DNA from: an uncultured Candidatus Saccharibacteria bacterium
GTDB taxonomy: Bacteria; Patescibacteriota; Minisyncoccia; Portnoybacterales; UBA2143
Length of the DNA: 64,000 bases
Reading direction: 5' to 3'
Assembly (NCBI GenBank): GCA_964556655.1
Contig: CAZKWY010000001.1
Coordinates: forward strand, 7,528-71,527
In this document: positions 4,250 to 35,251 of the stretch, piece by piece
Layout: every line of letters begins with the position of its first letter
Position numbering within the stretch: the first letter of the stretch is position 1
Made by a program: the position numbers and the translations under genes
The notes under the pieces: generated by a model
What the model was told of the DNA's origin: nothing
What the model saw: the letters and a program-made list of their open reading frames with translations, nothing else
The model's database searches: none

Positions 4250-4471
4250 TTATTGGCAGTCCTCAGGACAGCTTTCTCTTGTCTCTGGACAAGGACAGCC
4301 AAATGCTTGGCAAACCATTTCTTGACAAACGCCATCGCCACAAAGATCCTGGCATATTTCTGTTTTATTTTCGCCGCCTCCTTTTCTTTCGTTGTTTTCT
4401 CTGGCCAATAAAAAAGCGGCGAAAATAAGAGAAATTACAACTAATAATAAAATTATCTTTTTGTTAAACAT
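4250..4471 (-). CDS. Small secreted or membrane-anchored cysteine-rich protein
   Basis: 73 aa from the ATG at 4471 (the track's longer ORF begins at TTG). An N-terminal hydrophobic segment MFNKKIILLLVVISLIFAAFLLA is followed by 10 Cys in about 35 aa: CQDLCGDGVCQEMVCQAFGCPCPETRESCPEDC. Confidence 0.4.
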   Translation of the reverse strand: MFNKKIILLLVVISLIFAAFLLARENNERKGGGENKTEICQDLCGDGVCQEMVCQAFGCPCPETRESCPEDCQ

Positions 4472-4559
4472 AAAAATTATCTCTTTATTATTGATCAAAA
4501 AGTTGCTCTAAGCGCTTAACCATGATATGATTTTACCGTAAGATCAGCCAATTATCAAT

Positions 4560-5999
4560 ATGGAAAAATTACCTAGTATCATTAAGAATATCCTTGAGAA
4601 ACTGGAGAAAGAAGGCTTTGAAGCTTATGCTGTGGGAGGATGCGTTCGCGACTTGCTCCTCGACAGAGAACCGAAAGACTGGGACATTGCTACTAGCGCT
4701 CTTCCTGAAGAAATTCAAAAAATATTCCCCGAAAGCTTTTACAAAAACAAGTTTGGCACGGTTACCGTTAAAACAAAAAGCTTGGTTGAAACGCTTAAAG
4801 AAGTTGAAATAACCACTTTTAGAACAGAAGAGGGGTATTCTGATAAAAGGCATCCCGACAGAATAGAATTCGCTAAAACGCTTAAAAAAGACCTTTCTAG
4901 AAGAGACTTTACCATCAACGCCCTGGCCTTAAATAAGGAAGAAAAGCTCATCGATTTTTATTGCGGCCAAAAAGATATAGAAAAAAAGTTTCTTCGGGCA
5001 GTCGGGACGCCCAACAAACGATTTGAGGAAGACGCTCTGCGCATGCTAAGAGCTGTTAGGCTGGCCGTAGAGCTCAATTTTAAAATAGAAGAAAAGACTT
5101 TGTCAGCTATAGAAAAAAACGCCGGCTGGCTTCAGGCTATCGCTAAAGAAAGAGTTAGAGACGAATTCTCCAAAATGATTATGACTGACCGCCCTCACCA
5201 AGGGATAGAGCTTTTAAGAAAAAGCGGATTGTTGAAATATATTATTCCAGAATTAGAAAAAGGTATTGGGATAAGCCAAAACCGCCACCATATCTACACC
5301 ATCTATCAACATGCTGTCCTTTCTTTGAAATTTGCCGCCCAGAGGAAATATAGCATGGAAGTTCGCCTTGCCGCTCTTTTGCATGATATTGCCAAACCGC
5401 AGACTAAAAGAGGGGAGGGGCCTGATGCTACTTTCTACAATCACGATAACTTGGGAGCGCGCTTTGCCGTAAAAATCCTTAGTCGATTGAAGTTTCCTAA
5501 AAAAACCATAGAGAAAACAGCCCTTTTAGTACGCTATCATATGTTTGTTTACGGAGTAGAAGAAGTCAGCGAAGCTGGCGTAAGAAGGCTTTTGCGCCGC
5601 GTCGGGCCGGAAAATGTTCAAGATTTAATTGATTTAAGGGTAGCCGACAGGCTGGGTAGCGGATGCCCCAAAGCTGTCCCCTATAAATTACGCCATTTGC
5701 GATATATTATTGAGAAAGTCTCCAAAGATCCTATTTCTCCTAAAATGATCAAAATTAATGGCAGCGACTTAATAGAGCGCCTCGGTCTAGGGCCTGGACC
5801 AAGAATCGGCCTGCTTCTAGAGGCGCTGCTTTCAGAAATTTTAGAAAATCCTAAAATTAATATCAAAAAACACCTTCTTGAGAGAGCCGAAGAGCTAAAC
5901 AAGTTATCTGAAAAGGAATTAGAGAAAAAAACAGAAAGAGTAAAAGAAAGAAAAGAAGAAATAGATCTCCAAACAAAGCAAAAACACTTCGTCAAATAG
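4560..5999 (+). CDS. cca: CCA-adding tRNA nucleotidyltransferase with HD domain
   Basis: 479 aa. The N-terminal pol-beta NTase motif GGCVRDLLLDREPKDWDIAT, the downstream RRDFTINA motif and the HD motif LLHDIAKP are all present, followed by a K/E-rich C-terminal tail. Confidence 0.85.
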   Translation: MEKLPSIIKNILEKLEKEGFEAYAVGGCVRDLLLDREPKDWDIATSALPEEIQKIFPESFYKNKFGTVTVKTKSLVETLKEVEITTFRTEEGYSDKRHPDRIEFAKTLKKDLSRRDFTINALALNKEEKLIDFYCGQKDIEKKFLRAVGTPNKRFEEDALRMLRAVRLAVELNFKIEEKTLSAIEKNAGWLQAIAKERVRDEFSKMIMTDRPHQGIELLRKSGLLKYIIPELEKGIGISQNRHHIYTIYQHAVLSLKFAAQRKYSMEVRLAALLHDIAKPQTKRGEGPDATFYNHDNLGARFAVKILSRLKFPKKTIEKTALLVRYHMFVYGVEEVSEAGVRRLLRRVGPENVQDLIDLRVADRLGSGCPKAVPYKLRHLRYIIEKVSKDPISPKMIKINGSDLIERLGLGPGPRIGLLLEALLSEILENPKINIKKHLLERAEELNKLSEKELEKKTERVKERKEEIDLQTKQKHFVK

Positions 6000-6000
6000 C

Positions 6001-6028
6001 AAGGACTGTCATTCTAGGACAGTCCTTG
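6001..6028. repeat. Palindromic repeat element, copy A (single unit AAGGACTGTCATTCTAGGACAGTCCTTG)
   Basis: A perfect inverted repeat GGACTGTC/GACAGTCC lies between the cca stop and tRNA-Pro. It belongs to the same family as the copies at 8143, 23578 and 23956. Confidence 0.7.
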
Positions 6029-6033
6029 AAAAT

Positions 6034-6104
6034 CGGGATGTAGTATAACGGAAGTACGCATCCTTCGGGTGGATGTAGTCTGGGTTCGATTCCCAGCATC
6101 CCGA
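6034..6104 (+). tRNA. tRNA-Pro (anticodon CGG)
   Basis: Manual cloverleaf: acceptor CGGGATG/CATCCCG, anticodon stem CATCC/GGATG with loop TTCGGGT, T-arm CTGGG-TTCGATT-CCCAG, discriminator A. CCA is not encoded and the variable loop is short (4 nt). Confidence 0.7.
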
Positions 6105-6995: not shown

Positions 6996-8213
6996 TTGCC
7001 AAAACTTAAATTTATGGATTATTCCAAAGAATCTCTTTCTTTGCACAAAAGAAACAAAGGTAAAATAGAAATAAAATCTAAAATAAAGCTTAGCGACAAG
7101 AGAGATTTAAGCCTGGCCTATACTCCTGGCGTAGCCGAACCGTGCAGGAAAATAGATCAGCAGACTTCTCGAGTCTATGATTACACCATTAAGGGCAACA
7201 GCGTAGCAGTAGTCTCCAACGGCACTGCTGTCCTAGGGCTTGGAGACATAGGGCCCCACGCCGCTATGCCAGTAATGGAAGGTAAATGCCTGCTTTTCAA
7301 AAAATTTGCCGGCATTGACGCTTATCCAATATGCCTAGATGCCAAAGACTCTGAAAAAGTAATTGAAATAACTAAAGCAATAGCGCCAGGCTTTGGAGGC
7401 ATCAACCTAGAAGATATCAAAGCGCCTGAGTGTTTTAAAATAGAGGAGAAACTAGCTCGAGAGATAGACATTCCTGTTTTTCACGACGATCAGCATGGCA
7501 CAGCTATTGTTGTTTTAGCGGCTCTTATTAACGCGCTAAAAATCGTCAAAAAAGAAATAGGGGAGACAAAAATTGTCGTTAGCGGAGCAGGAGCCGCTGG
7601 AATAGCCACAGCCAGACTACTTTTAGCAAAAGGCGCGCAAAAAATAATTCTCGTTGACAGAAAAGGAATAATTTACAAGGGTAGGGAAGAGCTAAATCCT
7701 GAAAAACAAAAAATGGCTGAACTAACTAATCCGGAAAAAATCAAGGGCGACCTCCAAGGAGCGCTTGAAAAAGCCGATGTTTTCATCGGCATTTCGTCAG
7801 GCAACCTACTAAAAAAAATAGACATTAAAAAAATGTCCTCTAACGCAATCGTTTTTGCTATGGCCAATCCTATTCCAGAAATTATGCCTGATGAAGCCAA
7901 AAAAGGCGGAGCTATCATTGTTGCCACAGGAAGAAGCGACTTTGAAAACCAGATCAATAATGTTCTCGTTTTCCCAGGTTTTTTTAGAGGGCTTTTAGAT
8001 AGTCGGGCTAAAAAAATAACCACGGAAATGAAATTATCTGCCGCCCACGCCCTAGCCAAGATAGTTAAAAATCCTACTCCCAAAAAGATCATTCCTTCGG
8101 TTTTTGAGAAAAATATTGCCAAAATCATATCGTCAAACATCCAAGGACTGTCAAAAAAGGACTGTCCTAAAATTACAGTCCTTGGAAGGACTGTCAAAAA
8201 AGGACTGTCCTAA
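6996..8213 (+). CDS. NAD(P)-dependent malic enzyme (small type), with the last ~23 codons supplied by a palindromic repeat element
   Basis: 405 aa. [27 protein letters not shown] and [11 protein letters not shown] are malic-enzyme motifs. The C-terminal [23 protein letters not shown] is encoded by repeat copy B. Confidence 0.8.
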
Positions 8214-8232
8214 AATTACAGTCCTTGGAAAG
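8143..8232. repeat. Palindromic repeat element, copy B (two tandem ~43-bp units)
   Basis: The unit AAGGACTGTCAAAAAAGGACTGTCCTAAAATTACAGTCCTTGG occurs twice and is 90 bp in total. It overlaps the malic enzyme 3' end and lies just upstream of the trxB-like start. Confidence 0.8.
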
Positions 8233-17320: not shown

Positions 17321-17347
17321 GCCCAACACAGGCGCATTTTTTAAACT

Positions 17348-18580: not shown

Positions 18581-18581
18581 A

Positions 18582-19439
18582 ATGATAATTAAAAAAGACC
18601 AAGGTTTTACTGCTATTGAAATTCTGATCGTTATTTCTATCCTGATTATTCTGCTGGCTATCACTATAGGAAGCTACTTATTTTTTGAGAGAAGAAGCGA
18701 GCTTGATGATGCTACCCACCGTATTCTTGAAATTATCCGCTCGGCCCAAAATAAAACTCTTGCTTCAAAAGATGACACCCAATACGGAGTCTATTTTCAA
18801 AATGACCGCATAACCATTTTTAAAGGAGATTCTTATTCGGCTACTTCTACCGACAATGAAATATTTACCCTTCCAGACCGCTTAGAAATATACGATACCA
18901 GCCTGCGGGGCGGCGGCAATGAGCTAGTTTTTGAAAAGTTAAGCGGCCGCACCGAACAATATGGCAGCACAACTATTAGGATGATTGATCAGCCCTCTCA
19001 AGCAACCACTATTTTTATTGCTTCTTCCGGCCAGCTTAATACCAGCCAGCCTAGCGCTTGTTGCCAGAGCAATAGAATCACTGACACTAGACATCTTCAT
19101 TTTGATCTTGGCTGGAGCATCCAAAATTCTGCTACTACAACGCTTATTTTTTCCGACTCTCCGACAATAACTGAAACCATTAATATGGCTGACTATTTCG
19201 ATCCGACCAAGACAGAGTTTGACTGGAAGAAAACAATAGATGTCAATGGAGAAAATCAAACTTTGCGCATCCATACGCATTCTTTAGACGCTTTTAACAC
19301 TATTTTATGCGTCCATCGAGACCGCATGAGAAACGATAAACCTGTTCAAATAGAAATTGACGGCAAAAGCATTGTTTCTTATGACGCCGATGGAGCTATT
19401 TCTGTAGAAGCCTATGGCGGAACAGTGGAAAAACAATAA
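18582..19439 (+). CDS. Prepilin-type N-terminal cleavage/methylation domain protein (large pilin or pseudopilin)
   Basis: 285 aa. KDQG|FTAIEILIVISILIILLA is the class III signal, with G at -1, F at +1 and E at +5. Confidence 0.7.
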   Translation: MIIKKDQGFTAIEILIVISILIILLAITIGSYLFFERRSELDDATHRILEIIRSAQNKTLASKDDTQYGVYFQNDRITIFKGDSYSATSTDNEIFTLPDRLEIYDTSLRGGGNELVFEKLSGRTEQYGSTTIRMIDQPSQATTIFIASSGQLNTSQPSACCQSNRITDTRHLHFDLGWSIQNSATTTLIFSDSPTITETINMADYFDPTKTEFDWKKTIDVNGENQTLRIHTHSLDAFNTILCVHRDRMRNDKPVQIEIDGKSIVSYDADGAISVEAYGGTVEKQ

Positions 19440-19902: not shown

Positions 19903-19906
19903 GCTT

Positions 19907-23579: not shown

Positions 23580-23647
23580 GACTGTAATTCTAGGACAGTC
23601 CTTTTTTGACAGTCCTTCAAGGACTGTAATTCTAGGACAGTCCTTGG
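23578..23647. repeat. Palindromic repeat element, copy C (about 1.7 units, inverted relative to copy B)
   Basis: AGGACTGTAATTCTAGGACAGTCCTTTTTTGACAGTCCTTCA plus a partial second unit. It begins at the helicase stop codon and ends 3 nt before the rsmA ATG. Confidence 0.8.
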
Positions 23648-23649
23648 CT

Positions 23650-24519
23650 ATGAACCTTACTTCGCCCAAAATATTAAGGGAAACATTTAAAAAACACGAC
23701 TTTAAACCCCAAAAAAGACTGGGGCAAAATTTTTTAATTGACCAAAATATTGTTAATAAAATTGTCAAAATAGCTCAAATAAGTAAGAAAGACACTATTT
23801 TAGAAATCGGTCCCGGCACAGGCGCTATTACTAAAGCACTAGCGCAAAAGAGCAAAAAAGTAATTGCCGTAGAAAAAGACCCTCAACTATCAAAGATCCT
23901 AAAAGAAAACCTTTCTTCTTTTAAAAACACATCCATTATTACCTCCGACATCCGCAGGACTGTAATTCTAGGACAGTCCTTTTTTGACAGTCCTTCAAGG
24001 ACTGTAATTCTAGGACAGTCCTTGAAGGACTGTCCTTGGAAGGTGGTGGCTAATTTGCCTTATTATCTTAGCCAGCATGTTATTAGAAAGCTTTTAGAAT
24101 TAGAAAATCAGCCGGAAAAAATAGTTCTTCTAGTTCAAAAAGAACTTGCCCAAAGGATTTGCGCCAAGCCCCCGCGAATGAACATTCTAGCTGTTTCAGT
24201 CCAGTTTTACAGCCAGCCCGAAATTAAAGGATATGTTTCCAAAACTTGTTTTTGGCCTCAGCCAAAAGTAGATTCTGCCATTATTGAAATAAATCCCCTT
24301 GAAAAAACACAAGAGATATCCTCGGAGAGATTTTTTAAAACAGTTAAGGCCGGATTTTTTGCCCCCCGCAAACAGCTAGCCAATAATTTAACCAGTCAAC
24401 TAAAAAAAGGAAGGGAAGGAATAATAAAAGCGATCAAAAAGACGGGGATAGAAGAAAAGGCCAGAGCAGAAAACTTAACCATTAAAGAATGGATTAATTT
24501 AAGCCGTTTATTAACATAA
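23650..24519 (+). CDS. rsmA: 16S rRNA (adenine1518/1519-N6)-dimethyltransferase RsmA/KsgA, carrying an in-frame 28-codon repeat-element insertion
   Basis: The SAM motif ILEIGPGTGAITKAL and motif IV VVANLPYYLS are present. The insert [30 protein letters not shown] (nt 23956-24039) is encoded by the palindromic element and sits just before motif IV. The track's longer ORF (from 23344) overlaps the helicase in another frame. Confidence 0.8.
   Translation: MNLTSPKILRETFKKHDFKPQKRLGQNFLIDQNIVNKIVKIAQISKKDTILEIGPGTGAITKALAQKSKKVIAVEKDPQLSKILKENLSSFKNTSIITSDIRRTVILGQSFFDSPSRTVILGQSLKDCPWKVVANLPYYLSQHVIRKLLELENQPEKIVLLVQKELAQRICAKPPRMNILAVSVQFYSQPEIKGYVSKTCFWPQPKVDSAIIEINPLEKTQEISSERFFKTVKAGFFAPRKQLANNLTSQLKKGREGIIKAIKKTGIEEKARAENLTIKEWINLSRLLT
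23956..24039. repeat. Palindromic repeat element, copy D (84 bp), inside the rsmA coding sequence
   Basis: It is near-identical to copy C plus a GAAGGACTGTCCTTGG extension. The length is a multiple of 3 and the reading frame is preserved across it. Confidence 0.8.
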
Positions 24520-24554: not shown

Positions 24555-25064
24555 TTATCTTAATTTTCGGTAGCTTCTGATGTGCCAGAAGCCTTCCTCC
24601 CCTCTTCTGACTCGGATACGCCTACTGGCTGTCCCGAGCAACTCAGAACCGCTATAGACTCTGACCATAATGAGTGTCTCCTCTCTTCTTCGCGCTCCCC
24701 ATCCCCTAGGAACATCTTTCACAAGTATCCCGCCGGGATTAAGGGAATGCCAAGCCGCGTCATCCTGGATGTAAACTAGAACTTTGCGGCTAAGGCCATT
24801 AAAAATTTTGAACCGCCAGTTGAAAAATCCAGGCGGCTCGGACGGATCTACGTAGGCTTTCTCCTCCCCGCTTTTGGAAAGATGATCCACGACCGACCCG
24901 ACTCCAGCGCCAGTTAACCCGCCTACGAGAGCGCCTCTTTCATCTCCCGTATGAAGGCCAATACCAGCGCCCAGAAGGGCGCCTGTCGCTGCCCACTGAT
25001 GAGTGCATCCAAAAGAAAGCGCCATGACTATTGCCATTGCCATTGTTGCCCTAATTCTTTTCAT
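24555..25064 (-). CDS. Glycine-zipper lipoprotein
   Basis: 169 aa. The signal peptide has a lipobox (MAMAIVMALSFGC). The glycine-zipper TM-like motif is GALLGAGIGLHTGDERGALVGGLTGAGVGSVV. GC content is visibly higher than in neighbouring genes. Confidence 0.5.
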   Translation of the reverse strand: MKRIRATMAMAIVMALSFGCTHQWAATGALLGAGIGLHTGDERGALVGGLTGAGVGSVVDHLSKSGEEKAYVDPSEPPGFFNWRFKIFNGLSRKVLVYIQDDAAWHSLNPGGILVKDVPRGWGARRREETLIMVRVYSGSELLGTASRRIRVRRGEEGFWHIRSYRKLR

Positions 25065-25239: not shown

Positions 25240-26046
25240 ATGATGAAAAAAAAGCAATCTTCTATTAAAAAGAAAATTTTCGGAGGCTTTTTTATCTTTT
25301 CAGCGGCAATGGTAGGATGGTTTTTAATCAAAGACGATCCCGCTAAAAATAGCCCTAAAAATAACGGACCAGAAAGATTCAGCGGAGAAAAGCAAAGCAT
25401 CCAAGATCTTCCCGGCGGAAAAGACTCTGACAATGATGGGCTTACCGACAGAGAAGAGAAGGCTTACGGCACGGATCCATATAATCCTGACTCCGACCAA
25501 GACGGATATTTAGACGGAGAAGAAATCGCCGCTGGATACGATCCGCTAGTTCCTTCTCCTGGGGATAAAATCACCAATTTGGAAAATTTCTTGGCTAAAA
25601 TTAATCCCAGCCTAGACATTCAGATGCCGGATGAAAAAGATCTTAATATTTCTCTAGAAACAGGGCCAGAAGCATTAGAAAAATATTTTCAAGAAGCGCA
25701 AACTCCGTCTGAATTAAAAAACCCTGATTTATATAAAGAAGCCTTTCTGGAAGCCAGGCTGGGCAAAAGCGAAAAGATTAACCAGATTATCGCTAATCTT
25801 AAACAAAGCCGCCAGCGCCTTCGACAGATAACCGTCCCCATAGAAGCGCTCCAAGTCCATAAGCTAACTTTAGCTTTAATGACTCCCTTAATCCAACTTT
25901 TTGAAGACCTTAAATCGGCCCAAGACAGCCCCCTTAAAACATTAGTCTCTATCAAGGGTTCTCAAGAATTAGTCCCTTATACCGTAGCCCTCCAAGCACA
26001 GACAAATAATTTGGCGAAAAAATACGACATTACTATTCCTCAATAA
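25240..26046 (+). CDS. Membrane-anchored protein with thrombospondin-type-3-like Ca-binding Asp repeats
   Basis: 268 aa. An N-terminal TM segment is followed by DSDNDGLTDREE and DPYNPDSDQDGYLDGEE repeats. A TGgTATAAT extended -10 lies upstream. Confidence 0.45.
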   Translation: MMKKKQSSIKKKIFGGFFIFSAAMVGWFLIKDDPAKNSPKNNGPERFSGEKQSIQDLPGGKDSDNDGLTDREEKAYGTDPYNPDSDQDGYLDGEEIAAGYDPLVPSPGDKITNLENFLAKINPSLDIQMPDEKDLNISLETGPEALEKYFQEAQTPSELKNPDLYKEAFLEARLGKSEKINQIIANLKQSRQRLRQITVPIEALQVHKLTLALMTPLIQLFEDLKSAQDSPLKTLVSIKGSQELVPYTVALQAQTNNLAKKYDITIPQ

Positions 26047-27558
26047 ATGACCGCAAAGAGAACAGCTAAGCTAATAATGATTATAACCGTTTTTAGCGCG
26101 GGCGTTTTTTTGGCGCCCTTAAAAAGCCAAGCGGCTGTACCAGTAGTCGTTTTTGGAGAATACCTTAATCAAATTAAAACCGTTTCCGATATCTCTGATA
26201 CCGATCCGGAAGCAGATCTTCAATCAAAAATTATCGGCGAAAGAGAATACACCGAAGGAGATCCCTATAACGCCACTGTTACTCATACACAGAAAATGCA
26301 AGGATCACCTGACGACAAAGAAATCGTCCTTGACAGCCTTTTAGATAATATCAACGAAAGGATCGTAGAGCTTGAAAGAGCTATTGCCGAAGAAGAAAAC
26401 AAAGAAGATTCTAATAAAGCGCTAATCGACACCATGGAAGAAAGCGTTGGAGAGCTGACAGCTCTACGCGCTAGAATTAACTCTTTAAAAAGCCAACTAG
26501 CAGAAAGCGTAGCCCTTGATGTTCATATTGTCAAAGATACTTCTGATACTCTTGACGACTTAAAAGCGCTGGCAAGAGAAAAGCTGGCCAGAACACAGGT
26601 TTCAGAATTAAGCCGCGCCTTTAATAACCAATACGAAGAGACCATTATTAGAAATTTCCACGACTATATGTATCAAGAGCCGGTCCAAAGCGCCTATAAC
26701 TATTTAGATAATGTCCATTTCAAAGCAGACGAAACTGTTATGAGCGAAGAGAAAAAGGAAGCTATGAGCGTTGCCGTAAAAAGAAGCCTTGTTTCTTCAT
26801 ATTCTGACCCCGCGCTTCCGGAAAAAGATCCTGAATTTGTCGGTATAGAAAACATTTTTAAAAAAGAAGAGGGCGGCGGATGGGACCAATGGCGGCTAGC
26901 CCTCAAACCTAATAATAACGATTACGGCATTTTCTTTTCTGCCAAAAAAGCAGCCCAAGAATTAGCAGAAAGCAAAAAAGAAGAACAAATCACTAAAACA
27001 CTAGCCTATCAAGGCATTAAGCCCATTACTGGCGAAAACGAAAAAGGGGAGCTTGGACCAGGCGGCAATAGCAAAGAAGAAATTCAAGTTCCAGGCAGTT
27101 TAATCGCCTCCAACAAAGCGGCCGTTACCGAAGCCCAGTTTAACTTAGCGGCTACGCCGGAATACGCCGCTCCCCAAGACGCTCTAGGCGCTCCCGGCCA
27201 AACTCCTGAACCGCCCTACAAAGACGTCACCGCCGGAACGGCCAGCCAGGAAAATATTGTCTGGTGGAATAATGTAGCAGCAGACAGCCTTAGCGCTTTA
27301 GAAGATATTTTCTGCGCCTGCTTCCCTGAATTCTGCCGCAGCTATGAAATTTTTGACTTAAGCGGCATTATTCCTGGACTTAAAGTTCCCAGCGTTAATA
27401 TTTGCGGAAGAAGTTTTGATGTTTGCCGCTATTATCCTGAAATGTGCGAGAGCCTTTTAGGCCCGCTTGAAGGCCTTTTAGACAACTTAAACGACTTAAC
27501 CGATGTTAACGTTACCATTCCAGGCCTGCCCGACATTCTGGACGATATCGGAATTTAA
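26047..27558 (+). CDS. Secreted coiled-coil protein with a cysteine-rich C-terminal module
   Basis: 503 aa with a signal peptide and long predicted coiled coils. The C-terminal ~80 aa contain 8 Cys (CACFPEFC...NICGRSFDVCRYYPEMC). Confidence 0.45.
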   Translation: MTAKRTAKLIMIITVFSAGVFLAPLKSQAAVPVVVFGEYLNQIKTVSDISDTDPEADLQSKIIGEREYTEGDPYNATVTHTQKMQGSPDDKEIVLDSLLDNINERIVELERAIAEEENKEDSNKALIDTMEESVGELTALRARINSLKSQLAESVALDVHIVKDTSDTLDDLKALAREKLARTQVSELSRAFNNQYEETIIRNFHDYMYQEPVQSAYNYLDNVHFKADETVMSEEKKEAMSVAVKRSLVSSYSDPALPEKDPEFVGIENIFKKEEGGGWDQWRLALKPNNNDYGIFFSAKKAAQELAESKKEEQITKTLAYQGIKPITGENEKGELGPGGNSKEEIQVPGSLIASNKAAVTEAQFNLAATPEYAAPQDALGAPGQTPEPPYKDVTAGTASQENIVWWNNVAADSLSALEDIFCACFPEFCRSYEIFDLSGIIPGLKVPSVNICGRSFDVCRYYPEMCESLLGPLEGLLDNLNDLTDVNVTIPGLPDILDDIGI

Positions 27559-27573
27559 TAACAAACGATCATT

Positions 27574-28392
27574 ATGTTCAGCCTTAAACAGCTTCTCGCC
27601 ATCTGTCTAGGATTATCAGCAATAATTTTTTTAAATAGTATTGATATTAACAGCCACAAACAAAACAACCTCTCGCCCCAACAAGCTTCTCTGCCCGAAC
27701 CCAGCCTTTTGCCCCTAACAGAAAACAAGGCTTCGCTGGAATATTCCTCCCAAAACACCCTCGCAGAAGAAATTAAAACTATTGCCCAAAAAATAAACTA
27801 TTACAGCAAGGAAGATAATGAAGACGACGTTTGCGAAGCGACATTCCTAATTGAAGAAGACAGTCCCGAAATAAGAAACAACATCCAAGCAGTCTTTGAC
27901 TGGGTAGGCAAGGAAAAAGAAGTTTCTAAAGCTCAGGATCAAGGCATGGAAGCGCCCCAGGAAATAGTTGAAGGGACAAAAGATGTTGTTAGGTCTAGAA
28001 TTAAAGAAGCGGAAAGAATGATTGAAGAAATAGAAGAAAAAAAAGAAGAAGCGGCTCTGTCTATTGAAGAAATGGTCCAGATCCAACACTACCAACAACA
28101 AATTGACTATATCGACGAAATGGTAAAAAAACTGAAAAGAACGATGTCTTTAATAAGCACATCTAATAAAATTCCCTTGGGCATGCAATGCGGAGACGGA
28201 ACACATCCTAAAGAAGGTATTGGCCATAGTTTTTTTGCCTTTTGCTGTTCTGACTGCTGCCTATCGTGCCTGCCTAAATGCTGTTATTGCGGATGCTGCA
28301 TCCCCAGCTGTGAAGTATTGTGCCAATGCCTCTACGGATCATCTGCCTATTTATGGGACTCTGTAACCGGCACTTGCGGATGCGGCAATTAA
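27574..28392 (+). CDS. Secreted protein with an extremely cysteine-rich C-terminal tail
   Basis: 272 aa with a signal peptide and an acidic coiled-coil region. The last ~70 aa contain about 20 Cys (QCGDGTHPKEG...CCSDCCLSCLPKCCYCGCCIPSCEVLCQC...GTCGCGN). Confidence 0.45.
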   Translation: MFSLKQLLAICLGLSAIIFLNSIDINSHKQNNLSPQQASLPEPSLLPLTENKASLEYSSQNTLAEEIKTIAQKINYYSKEDNEDDVCEATFLIEEDSPEIRNNIQAVFDWVGKEKEVSKAQDQGMEAPQEIVEGTKDVVRSRIKEAERMIEEIEEKKEEAALSIEEMVQIQHYQQQIDYIDEMVKKLKRTMSLISTSNKIPLGMQCGDGTHPKEGIGHSFFAFCCSDCCLSCLPKCCYCGCCIPSCEVLCQCLYGSSAYLWDSVTGTCGCGN

Positions 28393-28399
28393 AAACTTT

Positions 28400-30280
28400 A
28401 TGAAAGGAAAAAAGACAATAAAAAACAAGAAAAAAATTTTGGGCGTTTTCCTCGTTTTTATTTTTCTTTTTTCTTCTTTTCTTACCGCGCCCGCCGCTAA
28501 AGCTCAAACTTTTGCAGACTTCGGACCCGGAGGAGGACTGGGCAGTTATACAGTAGGAAAATACATAGGGAACAAAGCTTTGGGAGCAATAGGAGACGCC
28601 TTTCAATGGCTCCTTGAAAAAGCGCTTATGATTGTAGGAGGACTAATGGCCTTAGTAGGAGAATTGTTTGACTACGCCCTCAACATCAGCAGTTTTACTG
28701 ATTCGCCCACTATCCGGGCCGGATGGGAAATAAGCAGGGACATCGTTAATTTATCCCTTATTCTCATCCTTTTAGTAATTGCCTTTGCTACAACCTTAAA
28801 AATTGATAACTACAGCATGAAAAGCCTTCTACCCAAGCTGATTGGCGTAGCTCTTTTGGTTAATTTTAGTTTAGTGGGATGCGGTCTGGTGATTGATTTT
28901 ACTCAATTAATAGCTGGTTTTTTCATAGAAAAAGCTGGCGGATCTTTTTCGGTAGAGCTTATGAGGGGGATAGAACTGCAAAAAGCGATCCAAATGAACG
29001 AAGAAGGAGTTAGAGAAATTGCCACTAATCCAGACCCGTCAGGGAAAGTTATCGTCAGCCTTATAGGAAGCATTATTGTCATCCTTATTGCCACTCTAGC
29101 CCTTTTTCTAGGAGCGTTGCTCATGATTTTTAGAGTGGCCGCTCTATGGATTCTACTTATTTTGGTCCCCTTGGCGCTAATGGCAATGATTTTACCTGCT
29201 ACTCGCGGATCTTGGAATTCATGGGTCAATCAATTTTTAAAATGGTCGTTTTTCGCTCCTCTTTATGCTTTCTTTGTTTATCTCGCCCTTTTGACTGCCC
29301 AAAAAGGGTTGGTCACTCAATATATTACTTCAACCGGAACTGGAAGCAAAGACGGCCAGCAGGCTACCGTTGCCGGACTTAATGGTTTTTCCAACATTGA
29401 TTTGATCCTTAATTATGCTGTAGTAATAGGATTTGTAGTCGGCGGATTGATCGTAGCCCAAAAAATGGGCATAAAAGGATCTAACTTCACCATGAGAACA
29501 GCCAAAGGGTTTGGCGAAAAAGCGAAAAAAATAGGCAAAAGAACAAGCATGGCTCCCGTTAAATGGGCTGGCCGAACGGCGGCCACAAGCGGAGCCATGA
29601 AAAAACTGACTGAAAGCGCGAGTGAAAGCAGATTTGGCAAAAAAATCTCTAAGCCGCTCCAACAATTCACTGAAAAAGAGAGAAAAGCTATGGCAGAATC
29701 AGAGAAGAAGTTTGACGACTTTACCGATGAAAACGTGGTCAGAAGATTTCGCGCAGGGAACCCACGCGAAAAAGCAGCCGCGGCTAAAATACTGGCCAAA
29801 AGAAAAAAGACAAACCTCTTAAATAGAAAAGGAGAAATGGACAAAGCAATGAAATTGGCCAGAAGATACAATGTCCAAGGAGATTTGGAAAAAGCGCGTC
29901 TTGACTTAGCCGCTGACGTCGACAAAACTATTGCCGGACTTAAGCTTAATGATACAGAAAAAATCCAGTCGGAAAAAATAACCCCCGAAATTGCCAGAAA
30001 ATTCACTGCTCAGTTTGAAGCAGGAGGCAATTTTAAAAGCAAGTTCCTAGAAAAAATAGGCGAGACAAACCCAGCCCTCATAGACAAGCTAGAATCAGGC
30101 CTCAAGGAACGCTGGACCGCATTGCGTCCAGAAATTAAAAAATACTTTATGGGCCCGGGAGGACAAGCTTTATGGAATGTCGCTCCTTCAGAAAGAGAAA
30201 CCTCCGAAGGCCCAACGACTACAACTAATAGGATAACCAAACATGGAAAAATACAAAGCGAAAAAATACGTCCAGCCTGA
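28400..30280 (+). CDS. Polytopic membrane protein, VirB6/TrbL-like (type IV secretion channel component)
   Basis: 626 aa. A signal peptide is followed by at least 6 TM helices and a hydrophilic K-rich C-terminal domain. The architecture is typical of VirB6/TrbL/PrgH-like proteins, and it is adjacent to PrgI-like and VirB4 genes. Confidence 0.5.
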   Translation: MKGKKTIKNKKKILGVFLVFIFLFSSFLTAPAAKAQTFADFGPGGGLGSYTVGKYIGNKALGAIGDAFQWLLEKALMIVGGLMALVGELFDYALNISSFTDSPTIRAGWEISRDIVNLSLILILLVIAFATTLKIDNYSMKSLLPKLIGVALLVNFSLVGCGLVIDFTQLIAGFFIEKAGGSFSVELMRGIELQKAIQMNEEGVREIATNPDPSGKVIVSLIGSIIVILIATLALFLGALLMIFRVAALWILLILVPLALMAMILPATRGSWNSWVNQFLKWSFFAPLYAFFVYLALLTAQKGLVTQYITSTGTGSKDGQQATVAGLNGFSNIDLILNYAVVIGFVVGGLIVAQKMGIKGSNFTMRTAKGFGEKAKKIGKRTSMAPVKWAGRTAATSGAMKKLTESASESRFGKKISKPLQQFTEKERKAMAESEKKFDDFTDENVVRRFRAGNPREKAAAAKILAKRKKTNLLNRKGEMDKAMKLARRYNVQGDLEKARLDLAADVDKTIAGLKLNDTEKIQSEKITPEIARKFTAQFEAGGNFKSKFLEKIGETNPALIDKLESGLKERWTALRPEIKKYFMGPGGQALWNVAPSERETSEGPTTTTNRITKHGKIQSEKIRPA

Positions 30281-30752
30281 AGAAAAGCTGGAGGAGATAA
30301 AAAATCCTAGACGAAAAGAAGTTTTTCGCCGCTATTTTAATCTTCCGCCAAAATTAAGAGAAACTCTTTTAAGCACAGAAACGGCCGAAAAGATGTTTCA
30401 GGCGGCAAGAAAAAACAGCTTAAACGAAACCCAGCACTGCCAAGCATCTTGGGCGGCAGGAATGATTATCTTAGGCGAAATTAATATCGTTAATTTCGTC
30501 AAGAAGCTGGAAGAGAAAAGCGGCTTAGAGAAAGAAAGCGCCCGCCAGCTGGCAAGAGATATTAATCAACTCATTTTTTTGCCAGTTAAAGAAGAGCTCA
30601 AAAAAATTCATCATATAGAAGAATGGCCCAGAGAAAAAGAAGCTTCTCCAGCCCCAGAGAAACCTGCCATGCCCGAACCGGAACCAAAAAAACAAAAAGA
30701 AGCTCCTTCCGGCAACGGAAGAATAGTAGATTTAAAAAATAATATTTATTAA
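30243..30752 (+). CDS. Hypothetical protein in the T4SS-like cluster
   Basis: 169 aa, hydrophilic, with no recognisable motif. Its start overlaps the upstream gene by 38 nt. Confidence 0.35.
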   Translation: MEKYKAKKYVQPEEKLEEIKNPRRKEVFRRYFNLPPKLRETLLSTETAEKMFQAARKNSLNETQHCQASWAAGMIILGEINIVNFVKKLEEKSGLEKESARQLARDINQLIFLPVKEELKKIHHIEEWPREKEASPAPEKPAMPEPEPKKQKEAPSGNGRIVDLKNNIY

Positions 30753-30758
30753 TGGGTT

Positions 30759-31055
30759 ATGCAATTTAAAGTGCCACAATTTATTGAAATGGAAGATAAG
30801 ATTGTCGGCCCCTTCACCTTAAAACAGTTTCTCTATCTGGCAGGAGGAACGGGCGTTCTTTTTGTTTTATGGTTTATTCTAAGATTGGGCGCTTTTATTA
30901 TTGCCGCTATTCCTGTTGGCGCCGCCTCTTTATTGCTGGCTTTTCGCAAGGTAAACGGCCGGCCCTTTATCAGTTTTTTAGGCTCTTTTTTTAAATATCT
31001 TAGCAAGCCTAAAATATATCTTTGGCGCAGGAACAATAATAATAATTTTTCCTAA
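30759..31055 (+). CDS. PrgI-family (VirB3-like) small membrane protein
   Basis: 98 aa. The N-terminal VPQFIEMEDKIVGPFTLKQFLYLAGG, followed by two TM helices, matches the PrgI family pattern of Gram-positive T4SS. Confidence 0.55.
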   Translation: MQFKVPQFIEMEDKIVGPFTLKQFLYLAGGTGVLFVLWFILRLGAFIIAAIPVGAASLLLAFRKVNGRPFISFLGSFFKYLSKPKIYLWRRNNNNNFS

Positions 31056-31058
31056 ATT

Positions 31059-31712
31059 ATGGCCTTATCAGACAACAGCACTCCCATTCAAAAACACCTA
31101 GACATTAAAGAAATTAAAAACGATGTAATCATCCTTAAGAGCAAAGAGTTAAGGGCTGTTTTGATGGCCAACAGCTTAAATTTTTCCCTCAAATCAGCTG
31201 AAGAACAAGACGCTATTGTCTATCGCTACCAAGAATTTCTTAATTCGCTTGATTTTTCTATCCAGATTTTAACTTCCTCAAGGCAATTTGACATTACTGA
31301 ATATATTGAGTCACTGGAGAAAAGACAGGCGCGCCAAGAAAACGATTTGTTAAAAATTCAAACTGCTGAATATATTGACTTTATTAAAAGCCTTTCGGAA
31401 ATAGCTAACATCATGGCCAGTTCTTTTTATCTGGTTGTTCCTTACACGCCTAATGTTTTTAAAAAAGGAGGCTTTTTAAGCGGCCTCTTTGGCAAAAAAA
31501 AGAAATCAGAGGCAGAAAACCAGCATTTCCAGACTTTGAAAAACAGCCTCTGGCAAAGAGTAGAATTCGTGGCTACCGGCCTTAGCTCTATGGGCATCCG
31601 CACTGCTCCCTTAAAAACCGATGAATTGATTGAGCTTTTTTACAAACTTTACAATCCCGGCGCGAAAGAAGAACCTGAGCTGCCTAGAAATAAAAAACTT
31701 AAACTGGAATAA
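31059..31712 (+). CDS. Hypothetical protein in the T4SS-like cluster
   Basis: 217 aa, soluble. Its stop lies 2 nt before the VirB4 start, so translational coupling is likely. Confidence 0.35.
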   Translation: MALSDNSTPIQKHLDIKEIKNDVIILKSKELRAVLMANSLNFSLKSAEEQDAIVYRYQEFLNSLDFSIQILTSSRQFDITEYIESLEKRQARQENDLLKIQTAEYIDFIKSLSEIANIMASSFYLVVPYTPNVFKKGGFLSGLFGKKKKSEAENQHFQTLKNSLWQRVEFVATGLSSMGIRTAPLKTDELIELFYKLYNPGAKEEPELPRNKKLKLE

Positions 31713-31714
31713 TT

Positions 31715-33526
31715 ATGGCTTGGTTTAATAAAAACAAAAAAGAAGAGTCTTTCAATTTTAACGGCCAATCTTTAGATCTTACAGATTTAATCGCCCCGGC
31801 GGCTTTAAAGATTGACTCTAACTATATCCAGCTGGGAGAAAAATACGGCCGGACTATTTTTGTTTTTAGCTACCCGCAAGCCCTTACTACAGGATGGCTT
31901 TCTCCCATTATTACCCTCGACCAAGAAACTAATATTTCTCTTTTTATCCATCCTGTAGACACTAGCGACATCTTGAAAAAAATGACCAAAAGGGTAGCTG
32001 AAATTCAGTCTCAGGTCTCTTTACAAATGGAAAAAGGCAAAGTGCGAGACCCCAAACTAGAAGCGGCTTTGCGCAATGTGGAAGAATTGCGCGACCGCCT
32101 CTTGCAAGGACAGGAAAAACTTTTTAAATTCGGCCTTTATATCACCTTCTTCTCTCGGTCGGTAAAAGAGCTTGATGATATTGAAACCCGCATTAGAGCG
32201 CTTTTAGAAAACCAAATTATTTATGCTAAACCGGCTATTTTTCAACAGGAAGAAGGATTTACTTCAACTCTACCCTTAGGCAGCGACAAGCTCTACATCA
32301 ATAACAGCCTTAACACCGGCCCTCTTTCCTCGGCCTTTCCCTTTGTTTCCTCTGACTTAACTGATAACAAAGGAGTTCTTTACGGCATTAACCGACACAA
32401 TAATTCTCTGATCCTTTTTGACAGATTTAGCCTAGAAAACGCCAATATGGTTGTTTTTGCCAAATCTGGCTCGGGGAAAAGCTATTCCGTAAAACTAGAG
32501 GTGCTAAGATCGTTAATGCAGGATACCGAAGTAATTATTGTTGATCCAGAAAAAGAGTATAAATATCTTACCGAAACAGTAGACGGCTCTTTTATTGACA
32601 TCTCTCTAGCTTCACCCAACCACCTAAACCCTTTTGATCTGCCTCTTCCCGGACCCGACGAAAACCCAGCCGACCTACTCAAAGGAAATATTATTAACCT
32701 TGTCGGTCTCTTGCGCATTATGCTGGGCGGACTGACTCCAGAAGAAGACTCTATTATTGACCGCGCCCTCCATGAAACTTATGCCGCCCGCGACATCACC
32801 CCCAAATCAGATTTCAGTAAAATTAATCCTCCTTTAATGCAAGATCTCTGCACTATTTTAAGGGGCATGGAAGGCGCAGAGGGGCTGATTAATCGGCTAG
32901 AAAAATATATCAGCGGAAGCTACGCGGGGTTTTTTAACCAGCCGACTAATGTTAAACTAGATAAAAAACTAGTCACCTTCAGCATCAGAGACATGGAAGA
33001 AGAGCTAAGGCCGATGGCCACTTATGTTATCCTGCGCTATATTTGGAACATTATTCGTTCGAAAAGAAAGAAGCGCCTGATGGTAGTAGACGAGGCATGG
33101 TGGATGATGCAACACGAAGATGCTGCTTCTTTCTTATTCGGCATTGCCAAAAGATGCCGCAAATACTATCTGGGCCTAACGACTATTACTCAGGACGTTA
33201 CAGATTTTATGAAGTCAAGATACGGCAAACCGATTATCACTAACTCTTCACTCCAACTTCTCCTTAAGCAGTCGCCAGCAGCCATAGATTTGGTCCAGAA
33301 AACATTCAACCTCACCAACCAAGAAAAATATATGATCTTGGAAAGCGCGGTAGGGGAGGGCATCTTTTTCGCTGGCGGCAAACACGCAGCCATAAGGGTT
33401 GTCGCCTCCTACACCGAAGATCAGGTTATTACTTCTGACCCAGCCCAGCTCCAAGAAATTGAACGAGCCAAAAGAGAGCTAGATGAAGAAGAGGGCAATG
33501 GACCGCCTTCTGATAATATTTATTAG
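31715..33526 (+). CDS. VirB4/TrbE/CagE-family type IV secretion ATPase
   Basis: 603 aa. The N-terminal CagE_TrbE_VirB-type region (IDSNYIQLGEKYGRTIFVFSYPQALTTGWL) is followed by Walker A (FAKSGSGKSYSV) and Walker B (RLMVVDEAWWMM), then a YLGLTTITQDVTDF segment. Confidence 0.8.
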   Translation: MAWFNKNKKEESFNFNGQSLDLTDLIAPAALKIDSNYIQLGEKYGRTIFVFSYPQALTTGWLSPIITLDQETNISLFIHPVDTSDILKKMTKRVAEIQSQVSLQMEKGKVRDPKLEAALRNVEELRDRLLQGQEKLFKFGLYITFFSRSVKELDDIETRIRALLENQIIYAKPAIFQQEEGFTSTLPLGSDKLYINNSLNTGPLSSAFPFVSSDLTDNKGVLYGINRHNNSLILFDRFSLENANMVVFAKSGSGKSYSVKLEVLRSLMQDTEVIIVDPEKEYKYLTETVDGSFIDISLASPNHLNPFDLPLPGPDENPADLLKGNIINLVGLLRIMLGGLTPEEDSIIDRALHETYAARDITPKSDFSKINPPLMQDLCTILRGMEGAEGLINRLEKYISGSYAGFFNQPTNVKLDKKLVTFSIRDMEEELRPMATYVILRYIWNIIRSKRKKRLMVVDEAWWMMQHEDAASFLFGIAKRCRKYYLGLTTITQDVTDFMKSRYGKPIITNSSLQLLLKQSPAAIDLVQKTFNLTNQEKYMILESAVGEGIFFAGGKHAAIRVVASYTEDQVITSDPAQLQEIERAKRELDEEEGNGPPSDNIY

Positions 33527-33528
33527 CC

Positions 33529-33912
33529 ATGCCAGATTACAGCCAATCATTTAATCAAGAAAGAAGCCTTGAAAGAAAAAAAGCTAGAAAAATTTCAGCA
33601 AGAAAAACTGCTGGAAGTCCTCCAAGCGATCTTAGCGGGGTAGAATTTATTGTTTTTGGCAGCATTGCTTTTTTAAATGACGCTTGCGACTGGATAGGAT
33701 TAGACCTGCTTTTATTTAGAGCTCTTGATTTAGCCACCTCTTTTATTCTCGGTTCATGGTGTTGGCTCCGGCTAAAACGCTTTCCTACAACTAGGTTTGC
33801 CTCTACTTTTGCCATAGAAATTATCCCATTAGTCGGAGATGTTTCCCCTGCCTGGACAATTTTTGTCATCAGCCTTTATTTAGAGCAAAGAAAAAATCAT
33901 AACGCAAAATAA
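33529..33912 (+). CDS. Small membrane protein in the T4SS-like cluster
   Basis: 127 aa with 2-3 predicted TM helices. Confidence 0.35.
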   Translation: MPDYSQSFNQERSLERKKARKISARKTAGSPPSDLSGVEFIVFGSIAFLNDACDWIGLDLLLFRALDLATSFILGSWCWLRLKRFPTTRFASTFAIEIIPLVGDVSPAWTIFVISLYLEQRKNHNAK

Positions 33913-34650
33913 ATGAACCGCCAACTAATCAAAAATTTCGCCGCTCTTTTTCTAGTAGCAATTTTTTTTGCTTTTACAATAAGCGTTGGGGCGCAAAATG
34001 CCCCCTCTGCTAGCCCTATTGATCTGTTATGGTCAACAAACGCCTACACTCCTCCTCTGTACCAAGGCAAAGCTCTGCCTATTAGAGAAAGCACAATAGA
34101 AATCGCGGCTATTACTTATTCTACAGACCGGCCCGATAGCGAGCTTTTTTTTAGCTGGTATTTAAACAACCAACTGATGAGAGAAGAATCAGGGCGGGGC
34201 AAAAATACTTTTTCCTTTGAATGTTTCCGTCCTTCTTGCCAGGTCAGGCTCCGGCTTCAAGACGACAACAAGCTGCCTCTTGCGGACAAAGAGATATCTA
34301 TTCCTCTTGTCTCGCCAGAAGTGGTCTTAGAAAAAAGACACTTTTCGTTAGACGGGCCCCGCTTATCAGGCGCCTTTGCCCTAATTTCCGGCCAAGAAAG
34401 CTCCTTTTTTATCCAACCCTACTTTTTTAATATCAACCAGCCCGAAGAGCTGGCCTATGAATGGCGCTTGGGCGATAAAAAAGCTCAAAATACTAGCGGA
34501 GAGAACCCCCAAGAGCTCGTTTTAAGAGTTGATAATATTAAAAAAATCGTTTCTGGGAATCTGTTTTTTAGCGCTATTGACTCCCAGACCAATCAATCAG
34601 CGAAAAACAGCGCTTTGCTTTATTTAATTCCTCAAAATAATGGCCAATAA
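33913..34650 (+). CDS. Secreted hypothetical protein
   Basis: 245 aa. It has an N-terminal signal peptide and no recognisable domain. Confidence 0.35.
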   Translation: MNRQLIKNFAALFLVAIFFAFTISVGAQNAPSASPIDLLWSTNAYTPPLYQGKALPIRESTIEIAAITYSTDRPDSELFFSWYLNNQLMREESGRGKNTFSFECFRPSCQVRLRLQDDNKLPLADKEISIPLVSPEVVLEKRHFSLDGPRLSGAFALISGQESSFFIQPYFFNINQPEELAYEWRLGDKKAQNTSGENPQELVLRVDNIKKIVSGNLFFSAIDSQTNQSAKNSALLYLIPQNNGQ

Positions 34651-35251
34651 GTCATCACTGCTTGTTTTTATTATTCTTTTTTCTCTCTTTTCAGCGGCTC
34701 TTCTTTTGGCTCCGGAAAATTCTCTTGCCGAATACGAATTGATCATAGATTATCCGGAACTTCCCTTTGAAAACGCCGGAAGCCCCGAAGAAGGCCTGCT
34801 TAGTTATCTTCGTTATATTTATATGGGAAGTATTAGCATTGTAGCCGCCACTGCCTTGATCATGCTGGTTTATTCCGGCTTTGTTTATATGCTTTCGGAG
34901 TCGGTCACCTCTAAAGAAAGCGCGATAGAAAGGATCCGCTCTGCCCTTTCCGGCCTTCTTTTAGCTTTGATGGCTTTTCTTATCTTAAACACCATCAATC
35001 CAGACTTAGTAAGCTTAAGGGAGCCAAAAGCCGCCCCTATCAATATTGAGGGGTCTGGGAAAGAAACAAATTGGTGGGGAGGAAGATATAAATGTTATTA
35101 TCCAAAAGGAAACGAGGAACCTTATTCTATAACATGCAATGGGGAAAACGAAACAAGCTGTCAGTTAAACTGCGAGGAGGCTTGCAAGGAAGGTTGCGAA
35201 GTAAATTGCGCGCCAGTCAACAATTGCGAGCCATCTCCAGCGTCAGAATAA
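34640..35251 (+). CDS. VirB2/TrbC-like T4SS pilin candidate with a cysteine-rich C-terminal extension
   Basis: 203 aa. A signal peptide is followed by two hydrophobic helices separated by a short loop, which is the VirB2-like topology. A C-terminal tail carries 10 Cys (CYYPKGNEEPYSITCNGENETSCQLNCEEACKEGCEVNCAPVNNCEPS). Confidence 0.45.
   Translation: MANKSSLLVFIILFSLFSAALLLAPENSLAEYELIIDYPELPFENAGSPEEGLLSYLRYIYMGSISIVAATALIMLVYSGFVYMLSESVTSKESAIERIRSALSGLLLALMAFLILNTINPDLVSLREPKAAPINIEGSGKETNWWGGRYKCYYPKGNEEPYSITCNGENETSCQLNCEEACKEGCEVNCAPVNNCEPSPASE

Follow-up and report, generated by a model that had tools for sequence, protein, structure and literature searches.

Four dissimilar cysteine-rich elements in a Patescibacteria sequence: candidate disulfide-stabilised tails on type IV secretion components

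Dense clusters of cysteine (Cys) residues are found in four proteins encoded in a 64-kb window of an uncultured bacterium (64,000 nucleotides of contig CAZKWY010000001.1; "the window" denotes this whole stretch). The four are a 73-residue protein (small73; 4250-4471, minus strand) and three plus-strand products: p503 (26047-27558), p272 (27574-28392), and a VirB2-like pilin (34640-35251). The three plus-strand genes lie in an operon of a type IV secretion system (T4SS), and small73 is encoded 20 kb from it. The initial annotation had located the genes and their Cys clusters correctly, and had viewed the clusters as one recurring module shared by otherwise unrelated secreted proteins.

The cluster of small73 comprises 8 Cys in residues 40-72 (33 residues), that of p503 6 Cys in residues 423-467 (45 residues, with no Cys elsewhere in the protein), and that of the pilin 8 Cys in residues 152-196 (45 residues). 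p272 contains 18 Cys, 16 of them within residues 206-270 (65 residues); the figure given earlier for this tail, about 20 Cys in 70 residues, was a slight overcount. The Cys background was 0.68% in the other 53 genes of the window. Significance of the clusters was calculated as the binomial tail multiplied by approximately 17,500 residue positions, and these corrected tails were 1e-16 for p272, 9e-7 for small73, 2e-5 for the pilin, and 0.013 for p503, the weakest case. The clusters are therefore real and enriched above chance in all four proteins. In a six-frame scan for Cys density, no more than three segments of real genes counted as really dense (with 13, 8, and 7 Cys per 35 residues), and the p503 cluster fell under the cut-off for dense segments.

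Leaders and topology were read by eye from the sequence and the positive-inside rule. All four proteins open with basic residues and then a hydrophobic stretch. In small73, MFNKK precedes an 18-residue hydrophobic stretch, and AlphaFold2 (AF2) predicts a helix at residues 4-27; p272 starts with MFSLKQ and 14 hydrophobic residues. p503 has a signal peptide with an AXA-like cleavage site (...KSQA/AVP), and the pilin has one with the site ...NSLA/EYE, followed by two hydrophobic helices. The earlier view that all four proteins carry a signal peptide or a transmembrane anchor is thus supported by leaders visible in the sequence, which suggest export or anchoring in each case.

It is very likely that the four clusters do not represent one module. 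Their Cys counts differ (8 in small73, 6 in p503, 16 in p272, and 8 in the pilin), as do the numbers of residues between successive Cys: 3, 4, 4, 4, 1, 6, 3 in small73; 1, 4, 22, 6, 6 in p503; 17, 0, 2, 0, 2, 3, 0, 1, 1, 0, 3, 3, 1, 15, 1 in the p272 tail; and 13, 7, 3, 3, 3, 3, 5 in the pilin tail. The shared-module claim fails because Cys spacing shows no conserved pattern, an outcome that the initial annotation had itself named as refuting it. Smith-Waterman alignments of all six pairs were at the level of shuffled sequences (z of -0.63 to +0.25 against 1000 composition-preserving shuffles). A profile of the small73 module, built from 173 sequences, scored 64.1 bits with small73, -25.6 with p272, and -7.4 with the pilin, gave no alignment with p503, and found nothing beyond small73 in a six-frame search of the whole window. 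Tail profiles of relatives (a 6-Cys pilin-tail module and poly-Cys proteins, both described below) matched neither each other nor the tails in the window.

Two resemblances on which the shared module had been based hold in part. The tetrapeptide CGDG does occur in both small73 and p272, but in p272 it lacks the family pattern (0.7 bits against the module profile), no Cys occurs in the next 17 residues, and the positional analogs of this protein do not have it. Acidic residues separate the Cys of small73, the pilin, and p503, whereas they are sparse in the p272 tail (5 D/E in 71 residues).

The module of small73 (residues 38-72; 4256-4360, minus strand) belongs to a widespread domain family with the consensus EICKDLCGDGICQEIVCLAIGCPCAETKESCPEDC. 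The domain has approximately 35 residues and the pattern C-x3-CGDG-x-C-x4-C-x4-C-x-C-x6-C-x3-C. Of the eight Cys, six are invariant and the other two almost so; the invariant columns, in small73 numbering, are C40, C44, C49, C59, E63, C68, D71, and C72, and GDG is nearly invariant. small73 shows the defining Cys spacing, its second Cys is followed by GDG and its sixth by E, and the module closes with P-x-D-C; this pattern does not occur in the tails of p272, the pilin, or p503. A full HMMER search with the 40-residue Cys part against 1.84 billion representatives identified 674 clusters at E<=1e-3 and 20 at E<=1e-10, with identity of up to 79%; a word-index search with small73 gave no match, so the family was reached only by full HMMER. 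Members come from Candidate Phyla Radiation (CPR) bacteria, among others, and from at least one DPANN archaeon (a member of the Diapherotrites).

The domain occurs singly or in tandem (1-5 copies were counted, and one protein had 7 matched stretches). Of 150 proteins, 88 have it at the very C-terminus, and 137 begin with a hydrophobic leader. Partner domains are DUF333 (13 of 106 members), DUF5667, PsbP_2, and Kazal, all of extracytoplasmic kinds; DUF5667 is typical of CPR proteins. These features suggest a free-standing, promiscuous extracellular mini-domain, whose eight Cys would allow four disulfides. small73 itself, with an N-terminal signal anchor, a G-rich linker, and one module, appears to be a minimal single-domain protein that is Sec-exported or membrane-anchored. 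Its AF2 model is confident for the membrane helix and shows the module as an irregular coil without regular secondary structure.

None of the family members looked up had a functional name, the domain had no match in Pfam, NCBIfam, or PDB sequences, and literature on "CGDG" yielded only unrelated eukaryotic proteins. A near comparison is DUF4215 (PF13948, the Myxococcus cysteine-rich repeat), likewise a short extracellular Cys-rich repeat starting with CG[DN]G. The small73 module differs in having 8 Cys in 35 residues and its own second half, GCPC...ET...CPxDC, and neither small73 nor p272 matched PF13948 at E<=1, while a positive control, a protein of related locus L009, scored 30.8 bits. Neither start codon of small73 gave a protein present in a collection of 15 billion proteins that does contain p503, p272, and the pilin of the same 93,973-bp contig, so small73 was apparently missed in gene calling. 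Genes for tRNA-Arg and tRNA-Lys lie directly downstream of it. None of 106 scanned family members had a T4SS domain, and small73 has no specific link to the T4SS.

The other three proteins are encoded in a plus-strand operon at 25240-36349 that consists of T4SS genes and a clade-specific upstream block. From its 5' end, the operon codes for a thrombospondin-type-3-repeat protein, p503, p272, a VirB6/TrbL-like protein, p169, PrgI/VirB3-like and TrsD-like proteins, VirB4, two small proteins, the pilin (of PF18895 type), and a 363-residue protein with a faint beta-propeller match. The first product (25240-26046), secreted and free of Cys, contains Ca-binding thrombospondin type 3 repeats (PF18884, E=2.3e-14) and has orthologs at the equal position in 20 related loci. 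The VirB6/TrbL-like polytopic membrane protein (28400-30280) matches Pfam TrbL weakly (E=0.24), with 52 matches at the same position in 51 related loci. The assignments of the PrgI/VirB3-like protein (30759-31055; 37 bits against a 27-bit cut-off), the TrsD-like protein (31059-31712; E=1.1e-5), and the VirB4 ATPase (31715-33526; P-loop_TraG, 90.5 bits; CagE_TrbE_VirB, 21.2 bits; a model of the N-terminal region also matched) are based on family models. The presence of VirB4, PrgI/VirB3, TrsD-like, and VirB6-like genes in one cluster is the combination that characterises MPF-FATA-like T4SSs of Patescibacteria. No relaxase is visible in the operon.

A search with VirB4 retrieved 80 syntenic loci, nearly all from assemblies of Patescibacteria (CPR). 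The closest named loci by VirB4 are those of Candidatus Portnoybacteria (70-74% identity), and assemblies recorded as "Candidatus Saccharibacteria" reach 80%. The end of the operon (36349) is approximately 6 kb from a dnaA-like open reading frame (ORF; 42133-43494), with the dnaA/dnaN region at 42-45 kb (36349-44775 when counted from the operon end), and the cumulative GC skew has its minimum in this region, at 42-44 kb.

The operon is the chromosomal, origin-proximal, relaxase-less T4SS already described in Patescibacteria (Quinonero-Coronel et al. 2025, PMC12102498). It has the same PrgI/VirB3, TrsD-like, VirB4, VirB6, and PF18895 pilin genes, lacks a relaxase as far as is visible, and is located a few kb from dnaA; that survey remarked that T4SS genes of Patescibacteria are often near the replication origin. 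The survey also reported pilin variability and pilin arrays and found no PrgB-type adhesin, and it uses the word "cysteine" once, for the VirB1 amidase domain, with no mention of Cys-rich tails. As cited there, the T4SS was reported to be essential for epibiotic growth in one Patescibacteria strain tested. The window differs from the described systems in having a single pilin gene and the clade-specific block (thrombospondin type 3 protein, large secreted protein, and poly-Cys protein). Judged by leaders and gene context, p503, p272, and the pilin appear to be exported parts of a T4SS-like operon of the Gram-positive (MPF-FATA-like) kind, and each seems to carry its own lineage-specific Cys-rich C-terminal extension.

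The pilin consists of a signal peptide, a helical hairpin core (residues 50-124), and an 80-residue tail, as judged by sequence and AF2. It scored 20.9 bits with PF18895 (E=3.9e-4), below the 26.6-bit gathering score, and 22.9 bits with NF045849 (E=5e-5; cut-off 40). Homologs found by phmmer and jackhmmer do pass PF18895 (P0161, 27.1 bits; L031, 30.1; L035, 33.6; L025, 33.0). AF2 predicts helices at residues 50-85 and 89-119 arranged as a hairpin, with core values of approximately 75-91 in the predicted local distance difference test (pLDDT); a Foldseek search of the PDB with this model found only generic helical hairpins (E>=0.29). The gene, the only pilin-type gene in the window, is 1.1 kb downstream of VirB4, an order shared by 33 related loci with a pilin match. 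Its earlier assignment as VirB2-like is supported by the leader and two-helix hairpin, by the adjoining T4SS genes, and by the homologs that pass PF18895.

Pilins of the VirB2/TrbC/TraA type share with it the signal peptide, the two-helix hairpin, and a gene near VirB4. Both ends of these pilins face away from the cytoplasm, and F pili can display sequences added to the C-terminus of F-pilin. The C-terminal tail of the window pilin should likewise be outside the membrane. An 80-residue tail with 8 Cys is unusual when set against these classical pilins.

The Cys-rich part of this tail (residues 152-196; 35093-35227) includes four successive C-x3-C. Homologs align with the window pilin up to LILNTINPDL and then diverge completely, and no homolog with the 8-Cys tail was found. 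In relatives, the tail is absent, or is a conserved 6-Cys module, or is a larger Cys-rich region, with 0, 2, 4, 6, 8, 10, 12, 16, 18, 20, or 30 Cys. The 6-Cys module (C-x4-C-x3-C-x3-C-x9-11-C-x-C, approximately 30 residues) occurs in eight sequences from different assemblies, and the window tail scores -3.9 bits against it. A weak 12-nt tandem duplication (35171-35197; 2.2 copies, 80% matches) underlies the C-x3-C periodicity at CEEACKEGC, and part of the tail may therefore have come from local duplication.

More generally, PF18895 pilins of relatives carry widely differing extracytoplasmic additions fused to their C-terminus. The pilin at L007:12907-13821 has 30 Cys in 181 residues and that at L020:3322-4245 has 16 Cys; other pilins with variable C-terminal additions include L019:13019-13810 and L034:12936-14312. 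P0161 contains a lysozyme-like SLT_3 segment in its tail (E=1.6e-4, below the Pfam cut-off). A LAS/M15 peptidase domain was suspected from a motif in the L019 tail and was unconfirmed by Pfam.

p272, encoded directly upstream of the VirB6-like gene, has an N-terminal anchor, an acidic helical middle (21% D+E), and a poly-Cys tail (residues 206-270; 28189-28383) whose 16 Cys include four CC doublets. It is an orphan: a word-index search of 5.8 billion cluster representatives returned only p272 itself. The tail had no match in Pfam or NCBIfam at E<=1, metallothionein families included, and PDB sequences gave only non-significant matches, to a thionin (E=0.48) and to the Cys-rich endodomain of a coronavirus spike (E=0.54), which we treat as compositional. 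No tandem DNA repeat was found in the tail. A C-terminal membrane helix was also considered for this segment; it is unlikely because the mean hydropathy is approximately 1.3 (calculated by hand) and D, K, and E occur inside.

Six of the approximately 20 closest loci encode a protein of 188-318 residues at the position of p272, between the large secreted protein and VirB6. In all six, basic N-terminal residues and a membrane helix precede an acidic middle (17-26% D+E), and the protein closes with a poly-Cys segment that has 2-5 CC doublets and reads ...CCCxCCxxCCG in four loci and ...CxCLCHCCGPxCC in two; their predicted ectodomains have 12 or 14 Cys in six of six cases. p272 had no phmmer match to these proteins and none to a hidden Markov model of the six sequences, and hhalign gave a probability of 1.9%. 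Since homology to them is undetectable, we refer to them as positional and architectural analogs. A scan of metagenomes for such proteins found four loci: two inspected tails were identical to those of L011 and L014, and the remaining two loci gave match values equal to the first two. The analog family therefore appears to be narrow, with no new lineages among the loci inspected.

p503 is a secreted protein with a signal peptide, a helical region, and a C-terminal 6-Cys cluster of the pattern C-x-C-x4-C-x22-C-x6-C-x6-C (27313-27447). It is weakly similar to proteins of 570-700 residues at the same position in relatives (best E=6e-5). These large secreted proteins have 8-9 conserved Cys columns that p503 lacks, and the 6-Cys C-terminus is peculiar to p503. 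At L009:3611-5710, the large secreted protein encoded upstream of VirB6, which served as the DUF4215 control above, ends in a DUF4215 repeat that is above the cut-off, and the upstream operon block thus tends to collect Cys-rich extracellular repeats.

In relatives, Cys-rich non-homologous inserts recur at three sites of the operon: the C-terminus of the pilin, the anchored protein upstream of VirB6, and a VirB6 loop. The first external loop of VirB6 has 8 Cys in L014 (6535-8385) and L030 (6498-8483), 9 Cys in L010 (6266-8128), and 4 Cys in L007, L012, L017, L018, and L023; that of the window VirB6 has none. Across the 80 loci, genes with at least 6 Cys per 35 residues made up 22 of 683 in the T4SS zone and 5 of 474 in the flanks (odds ratio 3.1, Fisher p=0.017).

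We favour the reading that the window contains four independent Cys-rich elements and that the three T4SS-linked tails are fast-evolving, disulfide-stabilised surface tips, with a probability of roughly 0.6. p503, p272, and the pilin would be exported by Sec, and the two membrane helices of the pilin, like the anchor and acidic stalk of p272, would put the Cys-rich ends outside the membrane. There the Cys would be oxidised to disulfides, presumably by an MdbA-like/VKOR system; a family of MdbA-like oxidoreductases with a CxxC motif is enriched in CPR and often encoded next to VKOR (bioRxiv 10.1101/335083). The oxidised tails would form compact knobs, resistant to proteases and stress, on the exposed side of the apparatus, carried by the pilin (on a filament, if the pilin polymerises), by the acidic stalk of approximately 170 residues beside VirB6, and by the VirB6 loop in relatives. 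Such knobs would evolve fast or be swapped, as expected of parts touching a host cell.

Among 45 distinct pilin tails, 26 had an even number of Cys, 2 an odd number, and 17 none, in a sample that includes related sequences and counts the 6-Cys tail group several times; even counts in 26 of 28 Cys-containing tails favour disulfide-type chemistry. An even-number Cys bias in exported proteins is a classic sign of disulfide formation in sequence data, a reasoning attributed to Dutton et al. (2008). The fast turnover of the tails, and the fact that some relatives lack them, are in keeping with accessory parts in contact with a variable partner, e.g., a host surface. We infer topology, disulfide formation, filament display, and host contact in this scheme. 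Taken separately, the identity of the tails as disulfide tips is an evenly balanced proposition and their service in host recognition a less probable one, and the tails could simply harden exposed loops.

Besides the relatedness within the parity sample, several observations weigh against this reading. A search for a DsbA- or VKOR-type disulfide oxidoreductase, a check proposed together with the shared module, found none in the window, where a scan for thioredoxin/DsbA-like CxxC motifs detected only a zinc-type motif in a PilB-like ATPase. AF2 gave the pilin tail no confident fold (pLDDT <50) and the small73 module moderate confidence (pLDDT 52-83). The predicted ectodomain of p272 has an odd number of Cys, 17, made up of the 16 of the tail and Cys87. 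Many close relatives have neither a Cys-rich tail nor a small poly-Cys protein, and these parts are thus dispensable for the core machine. p272 and the window pilin tail are without homologs, so that conservation cannot back a function of their exact sequences and, with no detectable homology, their link to relatives is one of position and architecture.

Metal binding is an improbable alternative, in which the p272 tail, and perhaps that of the pilin, would be a metallothionein-like cluster or a Zn, Cu, or Fe-S site. The p272 tail has the CC, CxC, and CxxC arrangements of metallothioneins, with 16 Cys in 65 residues, and the odd Cys count of its ectodomain would agree with this function. Anoxic groundwater is the habitat of many Patescibacteria, which have no respiratory quinones, and oxidative folding would be harder under such conditions. 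Yet no metallothionein or metal-site family was matched in Pfam or NCBIfam at E<=1, and the p272 tail, unlike metallothioneins, abounds in aromatic (F, Y, W) and aliphatic (L, I) residues. The similarity in Cys density and CC doublets to metallothioneins, and equally to thionins, conotoxins, and keratin-associated proteins, is an analogy, as there is no significant sequence match and organism, context, and residue composition differ. Even Cys counts dominate in six of six p272 analogs and 26 of 28 pilin tails, and MdbA-like/VKOR proteins are common in CPR genomes (bioRxiv 10.1101/335083).

Slightly less probable still is that the T4SS-linked tails are neutral, low-complexity extensions that arose by slippage or drift, i.e., pure compositional bias. 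Their hypervariability and absence from many relatives, the orphan status of p272 and of the window pilin tail, the 12-nt duplication under part of the latter, and the lack of a confident AF2 fold would all be expected of such extensions. What drift does not readily explain, at a Cys background of 0.68%, is an enrichment to 25% Cys, in several lineages, at particular positions outside the cytoplasm. The bias towards even numbers speaks for selection on Cys pairing, the 6-Cys module retains a fixed spacing in eight sequences from different assemblies, and the p272 tail has no tandem DNA repeat.

We regard as highly improbable that the poly-Cys tail is a membrane-active or toxin-like peptide, akin to thionins or conotoxins, that is freed from its stalk and passed to the host through or beside the T4SS, or a lipid-modified segment close to the membrane like the coronavirus spike endodomain. 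The best PDB sequence matches (a plant thionin and the spike Cys-rich tail) and the position of the p272 gene next to that of the VirB6 channel point in this direction, but both matches are non-significant and driven by composition, a cleavage site or processing enzyme is not evident, and the positional analogs have different Cys patterns. We know of no general bacterial machinery for S-acylation of such tails. Least probable of all is a single homologous module that spread to the four secreted proteins and diverged past easy recognition: export, some degree of acidity in all four clusters, the CGDG of small73 and p272, and the rapid loss of sequence signal in small disulfide-rich domains would accord with it, but Cys number and spacing are wholly different, the small73-family profile rejects the other three, the tail families of relatives match neither each other nor the window tails, and the p272 CGDG is out of pattern and missing in the analogs.

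Both the secretion system and, in general, Cys-rich exoproteins of CPR are already known. Large extracellular Cys-rich proteins of approximately 1,655 residues have been described in CPR (Peregrinibacteria; Anantharaman et al. 2016, PMC4736985), and a CPR CxxC oxidoreductase has been proposed to fold pilins, by comparison with MdbA/VKOR and Gram-positive pilins (bioRxiv 10.1101/335083). The exported, Cys-rich, and strain-variable surface proteins described in CPR have a proposed role in attachment; these reports deal with very large proteins and type IV pili, whereas here short tails occur on T4SS components. In PMC12102498, Pfam, and NCBIfam we found no prior description of Cys-rich tails on VirB2-like pilins, of a poly-Cys protein beside VirB6 or a Cys-bearing VirB6 loop, or of the 8-Cys domain family as such.

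Several other features of the window were recorded. Between ksgA and the T4SS operon lies a lone minus-strand gene (24555-25064) for a lipoprotein-like product with a Gly-zipper_YMGG match (31.4 bits) and an Arg-rich C-terminal half. Type IV pilus genes are found upstream of the operon (15569-21698), coding for a PilB-like ATPase, a PilC-like platform protein, and several pseudopilins with N-terminal methylation motifs, and a gene for a second PilB-like ATPase lies on the minus strand (56295-58001). The product of a PBP1A-like gene (45960-48545) has a small extracytoplasmic Cys cluster, GCSEDICYNQTPPCQSCQ, near its C-terminal part (46260-46316, minus strand; 4 Cys in 16 residues); the sole other Cys of this protein is in the N-terminal membrane segment.

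Short palindromic repeats with the core AAGGACTGTCC / GGACAGTCCTT and units of approximately 14 nt form clusters at 6001-6030, 8143-8228, 23564-23660, and 23956-24050. Among them are an exact tandem pair of 43-nt copies (8143-8228) and two identical 69-nt copies (23578-23646 and 23956-24024), the second of which is within a KsgA/RsmA-like ORF and is read in frame as 23 residues. The clusters look like a repetitive extragenic palindromic (REP) element or a miniature inverted-repeat transposable element (MITE).

A more far-reaching proposal, which we consider doubtful, is that fixed display sites of the T4SS have repeatedly been given non-homologous, disulfide-knotted mini-domains, newly arisen or swapped in, which together make up a hypervariable surface for recognising the host, much as phage tail fibres have exchangeable receptor-binding tips, and that, separately, the small73 module represents an undescribed extracellular family common to the ultra-small CPR bacteria and DPANN archaea. 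The 8-Cys domain is a compact, widespread building block missing from Pfam and NCBIfam, which matters for annotation and does not change concepts. The Cys-rich, fast-changing tips on the pilin, VirB6, and the stalked neighbour of VirB6 are candidates for the host-contact surface of the apparatus, and the even-Cys bias indicates oxidative protein folding outside the cell in these organisms. The tips may also serve as testable handles, through tail swaps, antibodies, and correlation with host range.

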